This document shows, piece after piece, positions 23 through 10,924 of a DNA stretch of 11,668 bases; position 1 is the stretch's first letter; each line of letters starts with the position of its first letter. The DNA is from Candidatus Hodarchaeota archaeon (GTDB lineage Archaea > Asgardarchaeota > Heimdallarchaeia > Hodarchaeales > Hodarchaeaceae). The translations under genes and the position numbers were made by a program. The notes beneath the pieces were generated by a model. That model made no database searches and was not told where the DNA came from. It saw nothing but the letters and a program-made list of their open reading frames with translations. Location: positions 1 through 11,668 of the forward strand of contig JAEOTM010000182.1 of NCBI GenBank assembly GCA_016839815.1, given 5' to 3'.

Positions 23-308
23 AAGTCGGTCAATCCTTTGCTACGAAGCTAGTTTGTCGCTTTCAAACGAAGGACTTAGTTGAGAAATTTAAGTATTTTG
101 GAGTTCAGTAAGTAGTTATAATGTGGATATGCTTTTTCTAAAATTTGATCAAGATATATCTGAATAATCTATCATATGTCTTAACTCAAGAATAGGATTT
201 AAAAACCTCATCATCAAATCATGATTACAATTAAGATGAAATTACTGGTTTTACGATTCATCAAGTAGATTAGAAAGGATGATTCAAATACCACGAAGAG
301 GAAACGAA

Positions 309-590
309 ATGTTAAACTCCAAAAGAACACCCATGCTTGCACCACCACGAGCCGACAAAGAGTATGATATAAAAGTTTATACAGAAATTTGTGATGGGTG
401 TGAGTTGTGTGTAGAATTTTGTCCATGTGATGTCTTAGAGATAGACATGGATACGTATAATAGTCGAATGTTGCATCCAGTCAAAGTTATTGCTCTAGAT
501 AAGTGTACAGGATGTAAACAATGCGAACGGTTATGTCCAACGGTATCTATCATGATAATTGAAAAAGAAGTTCCTCAGGAGGATAAATGA
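309..590 (+). CDS. korD: 2x[4Fe-4S] ferredoxin, delta subunit of 2-oxoacid:ferredoxin oxidoreductase
   Basis: Two CxxCxxCxxxCP motifs (CDGCELCVEFCP, CTGCKQCERLCP). ATGA overlap with the alpha subunit at 587-590. Start 309 preferred because GAGG lies upstream; 279 and 333 are alternatives. Confidence 0.88.
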   Translation: MLNSKRTPMLAPPRADKEYDIKVYTEICDGCELCVEFCPCDVLEIDMDTYNSRMLHPVKVIALDKCTGCKQCERLCPTVSIMIIEKEVPQEDK

Positions 591-1753
591 TGGCAACCAC
601 AAGTGATAAATCAAATAAATCAAAACTGATTTTAACAACGGGTAACTATGCTTCAGCTGAGGGTGCAATCGCAGTTGGTTGTCGCTTCTTTGCAGGTTAT
701 CCTATTACTCCATCTTCAGAGATAGCTCATTATATGTCACGACGCTTACCCCAAGTGGGGGGTTCATTTGTCCAAATGGAAGATGAACTTGCATCAATTG
801 TGGCCGTTGTAGGTGCTTCTTATGCAGGTGCAAAGGCGATGACTGCAACTTCTGGACCTGGATTATCTTTGATGGCGGAAACTGTCGGGTTGGGATTTAT
901 GCTTGAAGCCCCTCTAGTTATAGTGACCGTTATGCGTGGTGGCCCGAGTACTGGTCAACCTACTAAAGCCTCACAATCTGATGTAATGCAAACACGATAT
1001 CTATCACATGGAGACTATGAAACAATAGTTCTTGCACCATCTAGTGTACAGGAATGTTATGATTTTTCCATTCGGGCCTTTAATCTAGCAGAAAAATATA
1101 GAACGCCTGTTATTGTTGCATCGGATGGAATAACAGGACAAATGATGGAACCAGTTTCTTATCATTCAAATTTTGAAGTTATTAACAGGAAAGGACCACA
1201 AGTACCTCCAGACAAGTATCAGCCTTTCGAAATTATTGATGATGATCTAATACCTGGAATGGCAACAGCAGGGACAGAATATAATTTCTACGTAACTGGA
1301 CTTACTCACGATGTAACTGGAAGTCCCGATATGACTCCTGAAACAGAAATCGCCCTTGTAAAACGGTTATGTGATAAAATAAGACGCGCTCGTCCCGTTA
1401 TAAATGATTGGGAAGAAATGTACTTAGATGATGCTGAAACAGTGATTCTTTCTTACGGGATAAATGCTCGGGGTAATCCCGAAGCTGTTGAACAAGCTCG
1501 GAAGATGGGTCATAAAGTAGGCTTAGTGAGACTCAAAACATTATGGCCGTTCCCTGATGAACTTATGGAACGACTAGGCAAATTGGGGATTAAGAAAGTC
1601 CTTGTTTCGGAAATGAATTATGGTCAACTCATTCGTGAGGTTGAAAGATTTAGACATCTAGGAATAGAAGTTTCGGGATTGTTAGTCCCTACCACTATAC
1701 CGTTTGCTCCAGGATTCATCTACGAAGCATTAATGAAGGAGGTAAAAAGATGA
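587..1753 (+). CDS. korA: 2-oxoacid (probably 2-oxoglutarate):ferredoxin oxidoreductase alpha subunit, without a fused gamma domain
   Basis: Motifs GNxAxAEGA, FFAGYPITPSSEI, QMEDE, TATSGPG, RGGPSTGQPT and EMNYGQ. 388 aa. SD AGGAGG. Confidence 0.93.
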   Translation: MMATTSDKSNKSKLILTTGNYASAEGAIAVGCRFFAGYPITPSSEIAHYMSRRLPQVGGSFVQMEDELASIVAVVGASYAGAKAMTATSGPGLSLMAETVGLGFMLEAPLVIVTVMRGGPSTGQPTKASQSDVMQTRYLSHGDYETIVLAPSSVQECYDFSIRAFNLAEKYRTPVIVASDGITGQMMEPVSYHSNFEVINRKGPQVPPDKYQPFEIIDDDLIPGMATAGTEYNFYVTGLTHDVTGSPDMTPETEIALVKRLCDKIRRARPVINDWEEMYLDDAETVILSYGINARGNPEAVEQARKMGHKVGLVRLKTLWPFPDELMERLGKLGIKKVLVSEMNYGQLIREVERFRHLGIEVSGLLVPTTIPFAPGFIYEALMKEVKR

Positions 1754-2619
1754 TGACATCAGAGGAAGAATGGGGTACTCCAGAACTTGATTACCCAGAG
1801 GAACATCCTTTACACGGTAGATTAAATCTCAATCGATTTATCTTCTGTGCGGGGTGTTTAATAGGCACTGCAATTACGTCGATTACTACCTGTTTAGTAG
1901 AAAGAGGATTAACTCCGAAAGATTATGCAATAGTATCAGGAATTGGGTGTACAGGAAGAACGAGTGGATGTTTCAAAGCTCCTGCATTTCATGCAACCCA
2001 TGGAAGAGCTATTCCATTTGCTACAGGATTAAAGCTTGCAAATCCAGATCTTGAGGTTTTTGTACTTTCAGGCGACGGTGATTTGTTCGCAATAGGTGGA
2101 AATCACTTTATTCATGCGTGTCGACGCAATATAGAGATTAATGTAATAGCCAACAATAATGGAATATACGGAATGACCGGAGGGCAGTTAGCACCTACTA
2201 CTTCAATAGGTGACCTCACTAGCACTTCCCCTTATGGAAACATTGAGCCTCCTTTCAATCTTGTTTCGCTAGCGGCAGCAGCAGGCGCTTCTTTCGTTGC
2301 ACGTTGGCCAGGTTATGATACTCTTCGATTGAGAGAAAGTATCTTCAAAGCGATGGATAATCCTGGTTTTAGCTTCATCGAGGTTCTCGCTCCTTGTTTC
2401 ACGCAGTATGGACGAAAGAACAAACTTGGTGATGCGGTGAAAATGTTAGAATGGCTTCGTGAGCAGGTAGTAATTGATAAGAATTGTCCTCCTCAAGAAG
2501 CAGAGTATTCTCACGAAAGCAAGAGGATAGTATGTGGGGAATTTGTAAATAATCCACGGGAAGGATTTACACAAAAACTCAAACGACTCAATGAGACAGC
2601 ACAAAGCAGGAGAAAGTAA
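1750..2619 (+). CDS. korB: 2-oxoacid:ferredoxin oxidoreductase beta subunit (TPP-binding)
   Basis: IFCAGC, SGIGC, HGRAIPFATG, TPP motif GDGD...NNGIYGMTGGQ, C-terminal PC cluster ligand. ATGA overlap with korA. SD AAGGAGGT. Confidence 0.93.
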   Translation: MMTSEEEWGTPELDYPEEHPLHGRLNLNRFIFCAGCLIGTAITSITTCLVERGLTPKDYAIVSGIGCTGRTSGCFKAPAFHATHGRAIPFATGLKLANPDLEVFVLSGDGDLFAIGGNHFIHACRRNIEINVIANNNGIYGMTGGQLAPTTSIGDLTSTSPYGNIEPPFNLVSLAAAAGASFVARWPGYDTLRLRESIFKAMDNPGFSFIEVLAPCFTQYGRKNKLGDAVKMLEWLREQVVIDKNCPPQEAEYSHESKRIVCGEFVNNPREGFTQKLKRLNETAQSRRK

Positions 2620-2621
2620 CA

Positions 2622-5012
2622 ATGACAGAAAGCGTAGATCAGACTGAACAAGAAGTGAAAGTAGGAGTTTTTCTATGCAAATGTGGAAAAAACATTGCAG
2701 GGTCAGTTGATATAGATAAAATTGCAGAGGAAATCAAAGATTTACCTAATGTTGAACTGGTTCAGGTTAATACTTATACTTGTTCAGATCCTGGTCAGGT
2801 AGAGATTGAAACAGCGATCAAAGAACAAGGGATTGAAAAAATTGTTGTCTCAGCATGTTCTCCACGATTGCATGGGCCCACATGGAAGAAATTAATGAAA
2901 AGAAGTGGGATGAATCCAGAAGTTGTCGAAGTAGCTAATATTCGAGAACAGTGTTCATGGGTGCATCTTCATGAAAAGGAAGAAGCTACGCTGAAAGCCA
3001 TGGAATTAACTGAAATGGCGGTAGCTAAAGCCGCAATGCTTGAACCAGCTGAAGCAACAGTCGTTCCTGTGGAAAAAAGAGTGTTGATTATCGGTGGTGG
3101 TGTGGCTGGAATACAAGCTGGATTGGATTTAGCAGATGATTACAAGGTTGTCATGGTAGAAAAAAGTCCTACCATTGGTGGGAATATGGCTTTGATAGAT
3201 AAAACTTTTCCCACTATGGATTGTAGTATCTGCATTCTTGGACCTAAAATGGCCGATGTAGGAAACCATGATAATATCTCCTTGATAGCCAATGCTGAAG
3301 TCACTAAGATTTCTGGGTATGTAGGAAATTTCCAGGTAGAAGTAACTAAGCAACCCCAATATGTTGAAGAAGATCTTTGTACAGCGTGTAATGACTGTGT
3401 GGACATCTGTCCAGTAAATGTAATTGATGAATATTCAGGTAATTTAGGATGGAGAAAAGCCATCTATATTCCATATCCTCAGGCGGTACCTGCCAGCTAC
3501 ATCATTGACACTGACAATTGTTTGGGATTAGATGTGCTAGCATGTGGAAAATGCAAGGGTACCTGTGAGAAAGAGGCCATTAATTACGAAGATAATGTGA
3601 AAACTTATAAATATAAAGTTGGAACTATTATTATATCCACTGGATTTGAGATGTTTGATGCTTCGAAAATTCCAGAATATGGATGGGGCCACTATCCAAA
3701 TGTAGTCACCACATTCGAATTTGAACGTTTGATTAACGCTGCGGGTCCAACTTCAGGAGATCTGGTTCGACCTAGCGACCTTAAACGTCCAAAAAGTGTA
3801 GCTTTCATTCAATGTGTTGGATCACGAGATCAACGGTATAATCCATATTGTTCTAATTTCTGTTGTATGGAGAGTATCAAGGATACATTACTAATAAAGG
3901 AACATTGGCCAGATGTAGAGGTTTCTGTATTCTTTATTGACATTCGGGCATTTGGAAAAGGATTCGAGGAACTTTATACACGCTCTCGACGCGAAGGTGT
4001 TAAATATATCCGTGGACGTCCATCACAAGTTCAACAGGTGGGTCCAAGTAATAATTTACTAGTATCTGTTGAGGACACTCGGATTGGGGAATTAATCAAC
4101 CGAGAATATGAGATGGTGGTACTTTCGATTGGTGCTGATGGACCAAGTTCTAATGTTCCTTTCCCTGTAGCCAAAGACACTCATAATTATTATATTGAAT
4201 CACATCCCAAACTTCGCCCTGTAGATACACCAACTGATGGTATATTCATTGCAGGTGGAGCTGAATCACCTAAGGATATTCGTGAGGCAGTTACTCAAGC
4301 AAGTGCCGCTGCTGGACGTGTAACTAGAGTTTTAACTAAAGGTGAATTCTCAGTAGAGCCCTTATACGCCGTTGTCAATCAGGAACTCTGTAACTCATGT
4401 GGCATTTGTGCTACACGATGTCCTTATAATGCAATAACCGTAGACAAGGTGAAAAAGACTCCCGCACACGTCATTCCTGTTTTATGTAAAGGATGTGGGA
4501 CTTGTGCAGCAGATTGTCCTCAAGACGCCATAATGATGACCAATTTCACAGATGCAATGATTTTACGACAGGTAGATATTGCATTACGAGATAATGCAGA
4601 TGAAAAGGTCATGATTTTTGCATGCAATTGGTGTTCTTACGGTGGAGCTGATCTGGCTGGTACCAGTCGAATTCAATATCCCACAAACTCACGCGTCGTC
4701 CGAGTGATGTGTTCTGGGAGAATTGATGTCGATTTTATCAAACGAGCATTTGAGCTTGGAGCAGGATCAGTTATGTTGACAGGTTGTCATCCTCAAGATT
4801 GTCATTATATTTCAGGGAATGATTTCGCCATTAAACGGGAACGAAAGATTCGCCGTTGGATGAAGAAACAGGGAATAGATGATGAACGTTTTCTTATTGA
4901 GTGGATGTCTGCTGCTGAAGGAAAGAAGTTCGCTGATGTAGTTACAAAGATGGCTGGGATTGCTAAGAAAAATCATAAAGCCAAACATGTTTCTGAGAAA
5001 GCAATAGCATAA
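2622..5012 (+). CDS. hdrA: heterodisulfide reductase subunit A-like flavoprotein fused to a C-terminal MvhD/FlpD [2Fe-2S] domain
   Basis: N-domain CKCGKNI/CSDPGQ/ACSP/NIREQCSWVH; FAD motif GGGVAG; DKTFPTMDCSICIL; inserted ferredoxin CTACNDCVDICP; QCVGSRD..YCSNFCCM; C-terminal ferredoxin CNSCGICATRCP/CKGCGTCAADCP; MvhD motifs FACNWCSYGGADLAG, RVMCSGR, GCHPQDCHY (about 4600-5012). Confidence 0.95.
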   Translation: MTESVDQTEQEVKVGVFLCKCGKNIAGSVDIDKIAEEIKDLPNVELVQVNTYTCSDPGQVEIETAIKEQGIEKIVVSACSPRLHGPTWKKLMKRSGMNPEVVEVANIREQCSWVHLHEKEEATLKAMELTEMAVAKAAMLEPAEATVVPVEKRVLIIGGGVAGIQAGLDLADDYKVVMVEKSPTIGGNMALIDKTFPTMDCSICILGPKMADVGNHDNISLIANAEVTKISGYVGNFQVEVTKQPQYVEEDLCTACNDCVDICPVNVIDEYSGNLGWRKAIYIPYPQAVPASYIIDTDNCLGLDVLACGKCKGTCEKEAINYEDNVKTYKYKVGTIIISTGFEMFDASKIPEYGWGHYPNVVTTFEFERLINAAGPTSGDLVRPSDLKRPKSVAFIQCVGSRDQRYNPYCSNFCCMESIKDTLLIKEHWPDVEVSVFFIDIRAFGKGFEELYTRSRREGVKYIRGRPSQVQQVGPSNNLLVSVEDTRIGELINREYEMVVLSIGADGPSSNVPFPVAKDTHNYYIESHPKLRPVDTPTDGIFIAGGAESPKDIREAVTQASAAAGRVTRVLTKGEFSVEPLYAVVNQELCNSCGICATRCPYNAITVDKVKKTPAHVIPVLCKGCGTCAADCPQDAIMMTNFTDAMILRQVDIALRDNADEKVMIFACNWCSYGGADLAGTSRIQYPTNSRVVRVMCSGRIDVDFIKRAFELGAGSVMLTGCHPQDCHYISGNDFAIKRERKIRRWMKKQGIDDERFLIEWMSAAEGKKFADVVTKMAGIAKKNHKAKHVSEKAIA

Positions 5013-8861: not shown

Positions 8862-9311
8862 TTATTTCCCACTTTGATTAATAATTTGTTGATCAGTTTC
8901 AGAATGAATATGTGCATGGAAATTTGTAGAAGCACAACTTTCGCAATTAAGCATAGTTTCCTCCTTCTCTGGAAATCTCCAGGTATGTCCACAATCGTCA
9001 CAGTGGTAAAAATTCACGGGATTAGATATTCGAATGGCGTATCCTAATACCAGAGCTTCGGCAATTTTTCTGTGAGCTCTCTCTAAATGTCGTGAAACAC
9101 TTGATTGCGATATCTTCATCTGTTCAGCCACTTCTTCTTGTTTTAATCCCTCTAAATCTGTTAGACGCATAGATTCTAACTCTTCCAAGGTAATATCTAC
9201 CTGACCCAGGATATCCTTCATAGGAATTCCTCGTGGTTTAAAATAAAAATGTGCTGGGTCGCACTTGATATTTCTGGGACTTTTTGGGCGTGGTAAGGTA
9301 ATCAACTCCAC
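8862..9311 (-). CDS. DUF134 (UPF0251) HTH protein with C-terminal Zn ribbon
   Basis: PRPKSPR, YFKPRGIP, LEELESMRLTDLEGLKQEEVAEQMKISQSSVSRHLERAHRKIAEAL; C-terminal CDDCGHTW...CESC. Start is GTG 9311 or TTG 9305. Confidence 0.9.
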   Translation of the reverse strand: MELITLPRPKSPRNIKCDPAHFYFKPRGIPMKDILGQVDITLEELESMRLTDLEGLKQEEVAEQMKISQSSVSRHLERAHRKIAEALVLGYAIRISNPVNFYHCDDCGHTWRFPEKEETMLNCESCASTNFHAHIHSETDQQIINQSGK

Positions 9312-9419
9312 GACTGGACGAACTGGTAATTAAATCCTTTTTGACAATGTAGGTAATTTAAGGTTGATGAATCAAACAATCATAAATTCATCACAATGAC
9401 CGAGTATGACAACGGTTTT

Positions 9420-10012: not shown

Positions 10013-10348
10013 TTATACTTCATCTTTCTTTGATAAACTCTTAAGTCTCTTTTCAATATTTTCAATTTCTTGCTTCAAGTGATTCATAGACTCCTCAAGA
10101 TATTGTTTTTCATCTTCAGGGCCAATTTGACTAAATTTAGGAGGATAAAATATTCGCGGATCAGGAAAACCTATCGATCTTCCTCGAAATCTACCTCTTC
10201 CCCATCCTCGTCCTCCTCCATATCCACGACCCCATCCCATTCCACCTCCTTTAGTGTATCCAGGTGAAGTATCACCCGAACAGAAACCCAGTCCCCTTCC
10301 TGTTCGAGGTCCTTGTTCCCAAGGCCCCGTCCTATCTCCTCTTGGCAT
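10013..10348 (-). CDS. DUF5320 family protein (Gly/Arg-rich N-terminus, C-terminal coiled coil)
   Basis: Typical start MPRGDRTGPxxxGPRTGRGLGFC, a GRG-rich tract and the coiled coil EKQYLEESMNHLKQEIENIEKRL. The real start is probably ATG 10348 (SD GGTGA at 10358-10354), not 10375. Confidence 0.88.
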   Translation of the reverse strand: MPRGDRTGPWEQGPRTGRGLGFCSGDTSPGYTKGGGMGWGRGYGGGRGWGRGRFRGRSIGFPDPRIFYPPKFSQIGPEDEKQYLEESMNHLKQEIENIEKRLKSLSKKDEV

Positions 10349-10357
10349 TTTTATCAC

Positions 10358-10377
10358 CAATGAGCTATTGAACAAAA
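10358..10377. promoter_or_regulatory. putative operator, copy 1
   Basis: CAATGAGCTATTGAACAAAA. 10361-10379 matches the reverse complement of 10538-10556 at 18/19 positions. Confidence 0.6.
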
Positions 10378-10379
10378 CT

Positions 10380-10387
10380 GTATATAA
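10380..10387 (-). promoter_or_regulatory. TATA box of the DUF5320 transcript
   Basis: Minus-strand TTATATAC about 32-39 nt upstream of ATG 10348, preceded by an A-rich BRE-like CACAAAAC. Confidence 0.6.
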
Positions 10388-10388
10388 G

Positions 10389-10408
10389 TTTTGTGCTATT
10401 GCACAAAA
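10389..10408. promoter_or_regulatory. putative operator, copy 2 (perfect 8-4-8 inverted repeat)
   Basis: TTTTGTGC-TATT-GCACAAAA. 15/17 identical to copy 1 and offset by 31 bp. Confidence 0.7.
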
Positions 10409-10539
10409 ACTAAAATTTCACCTTAGAATAATTCTAGTCTAAATTTTTATTTTGATTCTAATTTTGTTGCTTCTATTGAGCGATCAGGAGGGAAAACTTA
10501 ATTAAGTTCTAATTATTTGAAAACTAATAGATAAAAAAG

Positions 10540-10559
10540 TTTTGTTCAATCGCTCAGCT
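10540..10559. promoter_or_regulatory. putative operator, copy 3 (inverted), upstream of the plus-strand DUF134
   Basis: TTTTGTTC-AATC-GCTCAGCT, the inverted near-copy of copy 1. Confidence 0.6.
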
Positions 10560-10603
10560 ATATGCTTAATTAGGTTAAAAGGGCTTTCTGGAGAAAAAAG
10601 AAT

Positions 10604-10924
10604 ATGAGAGATATTTATTCCGGACGAGGTAGAGGTGGTGGTAGAGGTCGTAGGTTTAGAGGGGGAAGACCACGAATACAACCTCGTATTGATTCCGAAT
10701 GGAGTTCTACAACTGGTGAAACAATTCTTAAGATCACTACCGTTGAGTTAGAAGCTCTTCGTCTGGTAGATAAGGAGGGTTTAACTCAGGAACAAGCAGC
10801 TACTCAAATGAATATTTCACGAGGTTCTTTATGGAGAATTCTTCAGGAAGCAAGAGCCAAAGTAATCACAGCTCTCACTGCGGGTAAAACACACATCAAT
10901 TTAGAGATAATTGAAAGAAAATAG
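10604..10924 (+). CDS. DUF134 (UPF0251) HTH protein with RG-rich N-terminus
   Basis: GRPR, ELEALRLVDKEGLTQEQAATQMNISRGSLWRILQEARAKVITAL. SD GGAG. Confidence 0.9.
   Translation: MRDIYSGRGRGGGRGRRFRGGRPRIQPRIDSEWSSTTGETILKITTVELEALRLVDKEGLTQEQAATQMNISRGSLWRILQEARAKVITALTAGKTHINLEIIERK

Follow-up and report, generated by a model that had tools for sequence, protein, structure and literature searches.

A conserved three-copy inverted repeat between divergent DUF5320 and DUF134 genes of a Hodarchaeota archaeon is a candidate operator for DUF134

Which protein reads the inverted repeats that lie between two divergent genes of a Candidatus Hodarchaeota archaeon, and what would its binding do to those genes? 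The repeats lie in an 11,668-nucleotide stretch of contig JAEOTM010000182.1 (assembly GCA_016839815.1), the whole of which we call the window. On the minus strand, the DUF5320 gene (10013-10348; ATG at 10348) encodes a 111-amino-acid protein that scores well above the Pfam gathering threshold for PF17253 (99.7 bits against a cut-off of 27) and covers profile positions 1 to 99 of 99. On the plus strand, the DUF134 gene (10604-10924) encodes a 106-amino-acid helix-turn-helix (HTH) protein (PF02001, 60.4 bits against a cut-off of 27), with the sequence GGAG at 10590-10593. A first-pass annotation of the window had described three operator-like repeats between the two genes and proposed DUF134 as their reader. 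DUF134 proteins (UPF0251, COG1342) are widespread small predicted DNA-binding proteins of anaerobic archaea and bacteria, and our literature search found no paper with a published target or operator for the family under the names DUF134, UPF0251, COG1342, or PF02001. The comparisons described below indicate that the three repeats are a genuine, strongly conserved candidate protein-binding site, and that DUF134 dimers probably repress DUF5320 and, through the third repeat, their own gene.

The three 17-mers of the first-pass annotation could be read directly in the window. Copy 1 (TGAGCTATTGAACAAAA on the plus strand, 10361-10377) is the proximal, asymmetric site of the minus-strand DUF5320 gene; on the DUF5320 strand it reads TTTTGTTCAATAGCTCA, has the TATA box on one side and the Shine-Dalgarno sequence on the other, and covers the expected transcription start. 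Copy 2 (TGTGCTATTGCACAAAA, plus strand, 10392-10408) is the distal, symmetric site and is part of a perfect palindrome (TTTTGTGC-TATT-GCACAAAA, 10389-10408) directly upstream of the TATA box, over the position of the transcription factor B (TFB) recognition element (BRE). The starts of copies 1 and 2 are 31 bp apart, and between them lies the putative TATA box (GTATATAA, 10380-10387, or TTATATAC on the minus strand, which is that of DUF5320). Copy 3 (TTTTGTTCAATCGCTCA, plus strand, 10540-10556; TGAGCGATTGAACAAAA on the minus strand) is asymmetric, precedes DUF134, and falls within the repeats designated D2 and I3. The site consensus is TTTTGTKC-N4-GMACAAAA, with the core TGTGC-N4-GCACA. Copies 1 and 3 are of a proximal type, TTTTGTGCAAT-M-GCTCA with GCTCA always facing the gene; distal sites are symmetric (GCACA), and the loci of the genus (L123 to L143) preserve this difference.

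The motif is confined to this locus. Allowing up to three mismatches, the degenerate 17-mer has 4 matches in the window against 0.28 expected, a number reached by none of 200 shuffles, and with at most one mismatch it occurs in the whole 4.24-Mb genome (36% G+C) at the three local places only. A weight matrix built from orthologous sites gave eight genomic matches of at least 15 bits, the three local ones included, compared with about five in shuffles. The genome scan proposed in the first-pass annotation therefore identifies a locus-specific rather than a regulon-wide element, with nothing above shuffle expectation elsewhere. A wider regulon was considered and rejected: match counts outside the locus are at chance level, and the best outside match (C101:35816) lies inside a coding region.

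To examine conservation, we searched 40 related genomes with the DUF134 protein and, separately, with DUF5320 alone, and aligned the loci upstream of the start codon. Across five related species, the three copies stand out as conserved islands in a diverged spacer: copies 1, 2, and 3 average pairwise identities of 0.95, 0.90, and 0.83, compared with 0.39 to 0.43 in the spacers. The intergenic alignment comprised the loci in which DUF5320 and DUF134 are divergent (L002, L003, L005, and L006), and copy 3 is recognizable in all four, most weakly in L002, so that the claim of a site before the divergent DUF134 gene held wherever the genes have this arrangement. The first-pass annotation had also listed a partial copy, TGAGCGAT (plus strand, 10477-10484); although it can be read in the window, the aligned orthologous loci do not preserve it, and it probably does not serve as a site.

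Nondivergent DUF134 genes are not preceded by a site; at their loci, the paired sites precede DUF5320. Loci were therefore also picked by DUF5320 alone. This yielded 21 full-length genes across the genus, with three genomes contributing a second copy. The same module lies in front of 20 of them: TTTTGTGC-N4-GCACAAAA, T(T/A)TATA(T/A)A, 3 to 4 nt, TTTTGTGCAATAGCTCA, the Shine-Dalgarno sequence, and ATG, the part after the proximal site reading T(T/A)GGTGAT, 3 to 5 nt, ATG. The T(T/A)TATA(T/A)A sequence occupies the TATA position in nearly all loci of the genus, and the arms of copy 2 are almost invariant while its 4-bp spacer varies. The start codon and the Shine-Dalgarno sequence (GGTGAT, 10353-10358 in the window) also align across the loci. 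The spacing between site starts is 31 to 32 bp in 19 of the 21 genes, which bears out the layout first described at this locus, with copies 1 and 2 on either side of the TATA box and about three helical turns from one to the other. In L137, one of the 20, the spacing is 24 bp and the proximal site is symmetric; in the single locus outside the 20 (L130), the distal site has decayed and the proximal site is weakened. The motif is absent upstream of a more distant DUF134 group of the same genus (L013 to L017), and the only apparent palindrome of that group, TCTGCTATTGCAG, was discarded as it lies inside a coding region.

The sites are not limited to the genus. Within the same class, a further family (L019 and L021 to L024) has TTTTGTGCATATGAACAAAA between DUF134 and a divergent small gene for a Gly/Arg-rich coiled-coil protein, followed by a NifX-like gene. 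The 121-amino-acid protein of L021 and L023 could not be accepted as DUF5320, since its Pfam match is subthreshold (20 bits; E = 0.0016) and our own hidden Markov model, which did score it as DUF5320, was seeded with these very sequences; we therefore call it DUF5320-like. A scan of one genome per prokaryotic species gave 80 DUF134 loci, among which the core, usually TTTTGTGCTTATGCACA, was found next to DUF134 both in Bathyarchaeia and in Asgard archaea of the Thor and Borr types, often as two or three copies 24 to 25 bp apart. At a Sif-type locus, it lies downstream of DUF134 and before a NifX-like gene, and extra copies precede NifX-like genes in L052, L058, and L060. The Bathyarchaeia order is DUF5320, site A, site B, ATATATAAAAG, DUF134, and site B therefore abuts the DUF134 TATA box; a site also abuts the DUF134 TATA box in the second family of the Heimdall group. 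In that family, in Thor- and Borr-type loci, and in Bathyarchaeia, the candidate core separates DUF134 from a divergent DUF5320 or DUF5320-like gene. The first-pass annotation had staked its proposal on a TG-N2-C-N4-G-N2-CA motif in orthologous promoters, and this motif is present there, even in other archaeal phyla.

The sites can also be linked to DUF134 through the protein itself. An AlphaFold2 model of the 106-amino-acid DUF134 consists of a disordered Arg/Gly-rich N terminus followed by a strand, three helices, and a strand (predicted local distance difference test score of >90 for residues 41 to 90), with the recognition helix ISRGSLWRIL (including R73 and R78). We counted the core (at most one mismatch, up to 400 bp upstream) by helix type among those of 100 nonredundant loci that had at least 300 bp upstream. 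Of the 53 loci whose helix reads S-R-G-x-x-W-R, 37 had the core; shuffles predict 0.43, and a control region downstream gave 1 of 48. Of the 39 loci with other helix types, none had it. These other helices are SRRxFW (Methanosarcinales), SRKTLW (Thermoplasmata), SRQTxQR (Actinomycetota), and SQSSxSR (paralogs with a zinc ribbon). S72, R73, G74, W77, and R78 are invariant in 39 aligned SRG-type DUF134 proteins.

No solved DUF134 structure exists, and Foldseek returned no match to the model at an E value of ≤0.001, its matches being at the HTH level only. The top matches were PDB entries 7bhy and 8r7y, and the best match in both structure and sequence was the DNA-binding domain of Bacillus subtilis DeoR (42% identity over 40 residues; root mean square deviation, 0.7 Å). 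A profile of the 39 DUF134 sequences matched this domain with an E value of 3.8e-6, and DUF134 has the sigma-70-region-4-like HTH of the SorC/DeoR repressors. In the DeoR complex, R34 and R39 are reported to make base contacts with the half-site TTGAACA of the operator ATTGAACAAAATTTCAAT (PMC11229326); in the alignment, their DUF134 counterparts are R73 and R78. That half-site, from the dra-nupC-pdp operator of a SorC family repressor (PMC11229326), resembles the TTG(C/A)ACA found here, with AAAA following both, and the candidate operator here, like that of DeoR, is bipartite, with two dimer sites a few helical turns apart, and overlaps the promoter. The DeoR effector domain, with its sugar-phosphate ligand site and tetramer contacts (PMC11229326), has no counterpart in DUF134: Pfam gives only DUF134 and HTH models for the protein, and the structural model ends with a single strand after the HTH. 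DUF134 is therefore not a member of the SorC family but only a relative of its DNA-binding domain. It differs further in its flanking beta strands and its disordered Arg/Gly-rich N terminus, and its putative sites lie at an archaeal TATA/BRE promoter. The helix-motif link, together with the homology to the DeoR domain and the retention of its base-contacting arginines, supports the earlier choice of DUF134 as the candidate reader.

Archaeal TATA boxes are usually centered about 26 nt upstream of the start. By this geometry, DUF5320 transcription would be expected to start near 10360, at the GCTCA end of the proximal site or immediately past it, giving a leader of about 12 nt that carries GGTGAT, and copy 1 would occupy the interval from the TATA box to this start. 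Throughout the genus, the elements keep the order TATA box, 3 to 4 nt, site, Shine-Dalgarno sequence, ATG, in agreement with a transcript that starts where the proximal site ends. On the other side, copy 2 abuts the TATA box with its CACAAAA end, whose AAAA flank falls on the BRE position. Dimers on the two copies, separated by about three helical turns, would share one DNA face and clamp the TATA box, a layout that suggests a repressor. The organism is known from metagenomes only; no RNA run on record holds the stretch, and the only runs that hold part of it are of marine-sediment DNA.

We therefore favor, as the probable mechanism, a dimer of the 106-amino-acid DUF134 protein that would bind TGTGC-N4-GCACA through its HTH. 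One dimer would occupy the symmetric site upstream of the DUF5320 TATA box, at the BRE position, and a second would occupy the asymmetric site between the TATA box and the transcription start. Separated by three helical turns, the two dimers would share one face of the helix and together exclude TFB and RNA polymerase, so that DUF5320 would be repressed, perhaps along with the minus-strand genes behind it. A dimer on copy 3 would confer negative autoregulation, as this copy is placed and oriented at the DUF134 promoter in the way that copy 1 is at the DUF5320 promoter: it is preceded by an A-rich, TATA-like stretch (10529-10539), and its orientation to DUF134 is that of copy 1 to DUF5320. An autoregulated local repressor would be expected to have such copies in front of its own gene and to keep them in orthologous loci, as is the case for copy 3.

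Another stretch between the genes may bear on the DUF134 promoter. The island GGGAAAACTTAATTAAGT (plus strand, 10490-10509) resembles a BRE with a TATA box and is conserved in L002, L003, and L005 (pairwise identity, 0.65); GAAAACTTAATTAAG, within the island region, occurs only once in the genome. The island may be an alternative, or the real, DUF134 promoter, or it may be a site for another protein. If it drives DUF134, copy 3 would alternatively lie just downstream of the start. A partial repeat of the island, CTTAATTAGGTT, is found at 10565-10576, 68 bp downstream of 10490-10509. In addition, L003, L005, and L006 have ATT, ten bases past the conserved GGAG, where the window's DUF134 gene has ATG, which suggests that ATT serves as a rare start codon or that the true start lies elsewhere.

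Several observations weigh against repression by DUF134 as the whole explanation. At least eight DUF5320 loci have the paired sites and no DUF134 gene in the roughly 1.5 kb that the fetched loci cover (for example, G009, G014, G008, and the second copies in G003, G007, and G017), and the DUF134 genes concerned have no site of their own. The paired sites track DUF5320 more strictly than they track DUF134 and belong first to the DUF5320 promoter. The genome G008 (80% complete) carries DUF5320 with both sites, and only a zinc ribbon type of DUF134 was detected there, with no SRG type. The gene-proximal half of copies 1 and 3 reads GCTCA instead of GCACA in nearly all species, an asymmetry that may reflect an initiator constraint, a different partner, or a heterodimer. 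The link to helix type is confounded by phylogeny, as it sets Asgard archaea and Bathyarchaeia against methanogens, Thermoplasmata, and Actinomycetota. The half-sites here are everted relative to those of DeoR, so the DeoR complex is not directly transferable and serves as a lead only, and DUF134 has no obvious sensor domain. Finally, we infer the identity of the binder, the sign of the regulation, the cooperativity, any metal dependence, and the signal, as well as the transcription start and with it the position of the sites relative to the start.

Because the sites follow DUF5320, and because of the G008 case, the phylogenetic confounding, the missing sensor domain, and the GCTCA half-sites, the most serious rival is that DUF5320 itself reads the sites, or that only a DUF134-DUF5320 complex does, although we consider it unlikely. 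Under this explanation, DUF5320 would autoregulate its gene, or it would serve DUF134 as a bridging or sensing partner. Such a two-part repressor, to which we give an equally low probability, would use DUF5320 to sense a signal (perhaps iron or iron-sulfur [Fe-S] status) or to bridge two DUF134 dimers across the TATA box; DUF5320 would thereby replace the effector and tetramerization domain that DUF134 lacks in comparison with SorC/DeoR proteins, and the DUF5320 promoter would be the primary target in a feedback loop shared by lineages from Asgard archaea to Bathyarchaeia. The paired sites do stand at nearly every DUF5320 gene of the genus, whether or not DUF134 is nearby. DUF5320 and SRG-type DUF134 also co-occur and are co-absent: the four genomes of the genus without an SRG-type DUF134 (G001, G002, G006, and G016) have neither DUF5320 nor the paired sites, a pattern that equally speaks for DUF134 as the reader. 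The two proteins have similar Arg/Gly-rich tracts, and DUF134 lacks the tetramerizing domain of SorC-type repressors (PMC11229326). DUF5320 is a small protein with a conserved cysteine and an Arg/Gly-rich N terminus; its N-terminal motif is MPRGDRTGP...GxC, its middle is rich in Gly, Arg, and Trp, and its C-terminal part is a coiled coil. Longer, fused forms of DUF134 (with a sensor domain or with DUF5320) were not found with this query, which is weak evidence. Set against this rival, DUF5320 has no recognizable sequence-specific DNA-binding fold, Pfam giving DUF5320 alone. An HTH protein that controls its own gene in the classical way would account for copy 3 and for the Bathyarchaeia site beside the DUF134 TATA box, and some lineages have sites before NifX-like genes without DUF5320 (L052, L058, and L060). 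The helix-type link also favors DUF134 over DUF5320 as the reader.

Considerably less probable is that another trans-acting factor reads the sites, be it a 149-amino-acid DUF134 paralog with a zinc ribbon, the DtxR-like repressor of some relatives, or a factor encoded elsewhere. In L007 to L009, one strand carries DUF5320, a gene for a DtxR-family repressor (Fe_dep_repr_C), DUF134, and FeoA, in that order, which places a DtxR-family gene between the two genes of interest. The zinc ribbon paralog lies downstream of DUF5320 in the window and in the closest relatives, and G008 shows the zinc ribbon type only. However, the window has all three sites yet no DtxR-like gene, and the zinc ribbon paralogs have a different recognition helix (SQSSVSRHL) and different upstream palindromes. 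No zinc ribbon paralog was detected with this query in G017 and G004, both of which keep DUF5320 and the sites. A global factor would be expected to have more sites, whereas the rest of the genome is at chance level.

Least probable of all is that the repeats are not repressor sites but an activator site, an unusual core-promoter element that was copied when the promoter was duplicated, or a feature of the RNA, for instance a leader hairpin: copies 1 and 3 do share a TATA-like stretch, AG, TTTTGTTCAATMGCTCA, and the same orientation to the gene, as a duplicated promoter would, the AAAA flank falls on the BRE position, and copy 2 could fold as an 8-bp hairpin, but the motif is unique in the genome and hence not a general promoter element, copies 1 and 3 would make poor hairpins, the usual archaeal geometry puts the proximal site upstream of the start, where it would not be transcribed, a position between TATA box and start is typical of a repressor, and half-sites that are kept across phyla around a variable spacer, in both orientations and at varied distances from genes, behave as sites for a dimeric DNA-binding protein do.

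Repression by DUF134 would place the locus among familiar systems. MDR1, LrpA, Phr, NrpR, and TrmB-type proteins are archaeal repressors that block the core promoter. As with these, the sites here overlap or abut the BRE/TATA and TATA-to-start regions, and palindromic operators accompany a gene that would be autoregulated; control of core promoters by a local HTH protein through overlying palindromes is a familiar arrangement. The differences are that those repressors have other protein folds, that the site pair here brackets the TATA box at a fixed 31 to 32 bp, and that the main target here would be a small coiled-coil protein. Three features are specific to this system: a TGTGC/GCACA class of site tied to SRGxxWR, a clamp of fixed geometry on the TATA box of DUF5320, and the coexistence of two operator classes within the genome. 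The locus thus offers an uncharacterized family a testable DNA site, a TATA-clamping layout, and a helix signature (SRGxxWR), and it names the uncharacterized DUF5320 as the predicted main regulated target. Binding and regulation could be tested with the 106-amino-acid protein and a 260-bp fragment.

The signal to which DUF134 would respond may be iron or Fe-S status, judged solely from neighboring genes in relatives. The gene order of L007 to L009 hints at a tie between the module and iron uptake, and the DtxR-like, FeoA, and NifX-like neighbors together hint at a role in iron/Fe-S homeostasis in Asgard archaea. In other lineages, DUF134 and DUF5320 adjoin NifX-like (Nitro_FeMo-Co) genes of the orange-protein type with the same operator, which recalls the OrpR/orp operons of Desulfovibrio vulgaris (PMC8359166). 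OrpR differs in being a bacterial sigma-54-dependent PAS/AAA+ activator (PMC8359166), of which there is none here, nor is there a sigma-54 promoter. Among the eight window proteins scanned against Pfam, no OrpR-type activator and no orp-like gene product was found; the module in the window is without NifX-like or Mrp genes, and the NifX-like genes of this genome are found only at a separate locus, on contig C189.

DUF134 subtypes pair with different candidate palindromes at their own promoters, and this holds even for paralogs within one genome, which makes the family a convenient system for studying changes in HTH specificity. In Thermoplasmata, the palindrome TTCTCATATGAGTAA lies right behind the TATA box of DUF134. 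Six Thermoplasmata loci (L054, L074, L083, L086, L094, and L095; helix SRKTLWNDL) have TTC(T/G)CATATG(A/T)GTAA directly after the TATA box, and a related (C/T)ATGAG element occupies the corresponding position in Methanosarcinales. On contig C189 of the genome studied here (3360-3445), a third DUF134, with a zinc ribbon and the helix SQSTISRHL, heads an operon with two NifX-like genes. Upstream of it are the perfect palindromes TTTTGCATA-CC-TATGCAAAA and ATGAATATATATTCAT, a second operator class in this genome. As a genome-wide element, TGAATA-N2-TATTCA was rejected, having 39 matches against about 55 in shuffles; it is relevantly placed only at C189, and exact matches also occur on C122, inside a long open reading frame, and on C123.

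The zinc ribbon paralog in the window lies at 8862-9311 (149 amino acids, C-terminal zinc ribbon, 65.3 bits in Pfam). The inverted repeat TGATGAAT-N13-ATTCATCA at 9365-9393, upstream of this paralog, is unlike the TGTGC motif. At the corresponding place, relatives have elements of the ATGAAT/TATGCA type that are not clearly conserved. Arg/Gly-rich tracts are encoded by both divergent genes, by GRGWGRGRFRGR in DUF5320 (10178-10250) and by GRGRGGGRGRRFRGGRPR in DUF134 (10622-10650), and their DNA forms an inverted repeat of 72 to 75% complementarity between the two genes. Elsewhere in the window (279-5012) lies a 2-oxoacid:ferredoxin oxidoreductase delta-alpha-beta operon that ends in an HdrA-MvhD fusion of 796 amino acids.

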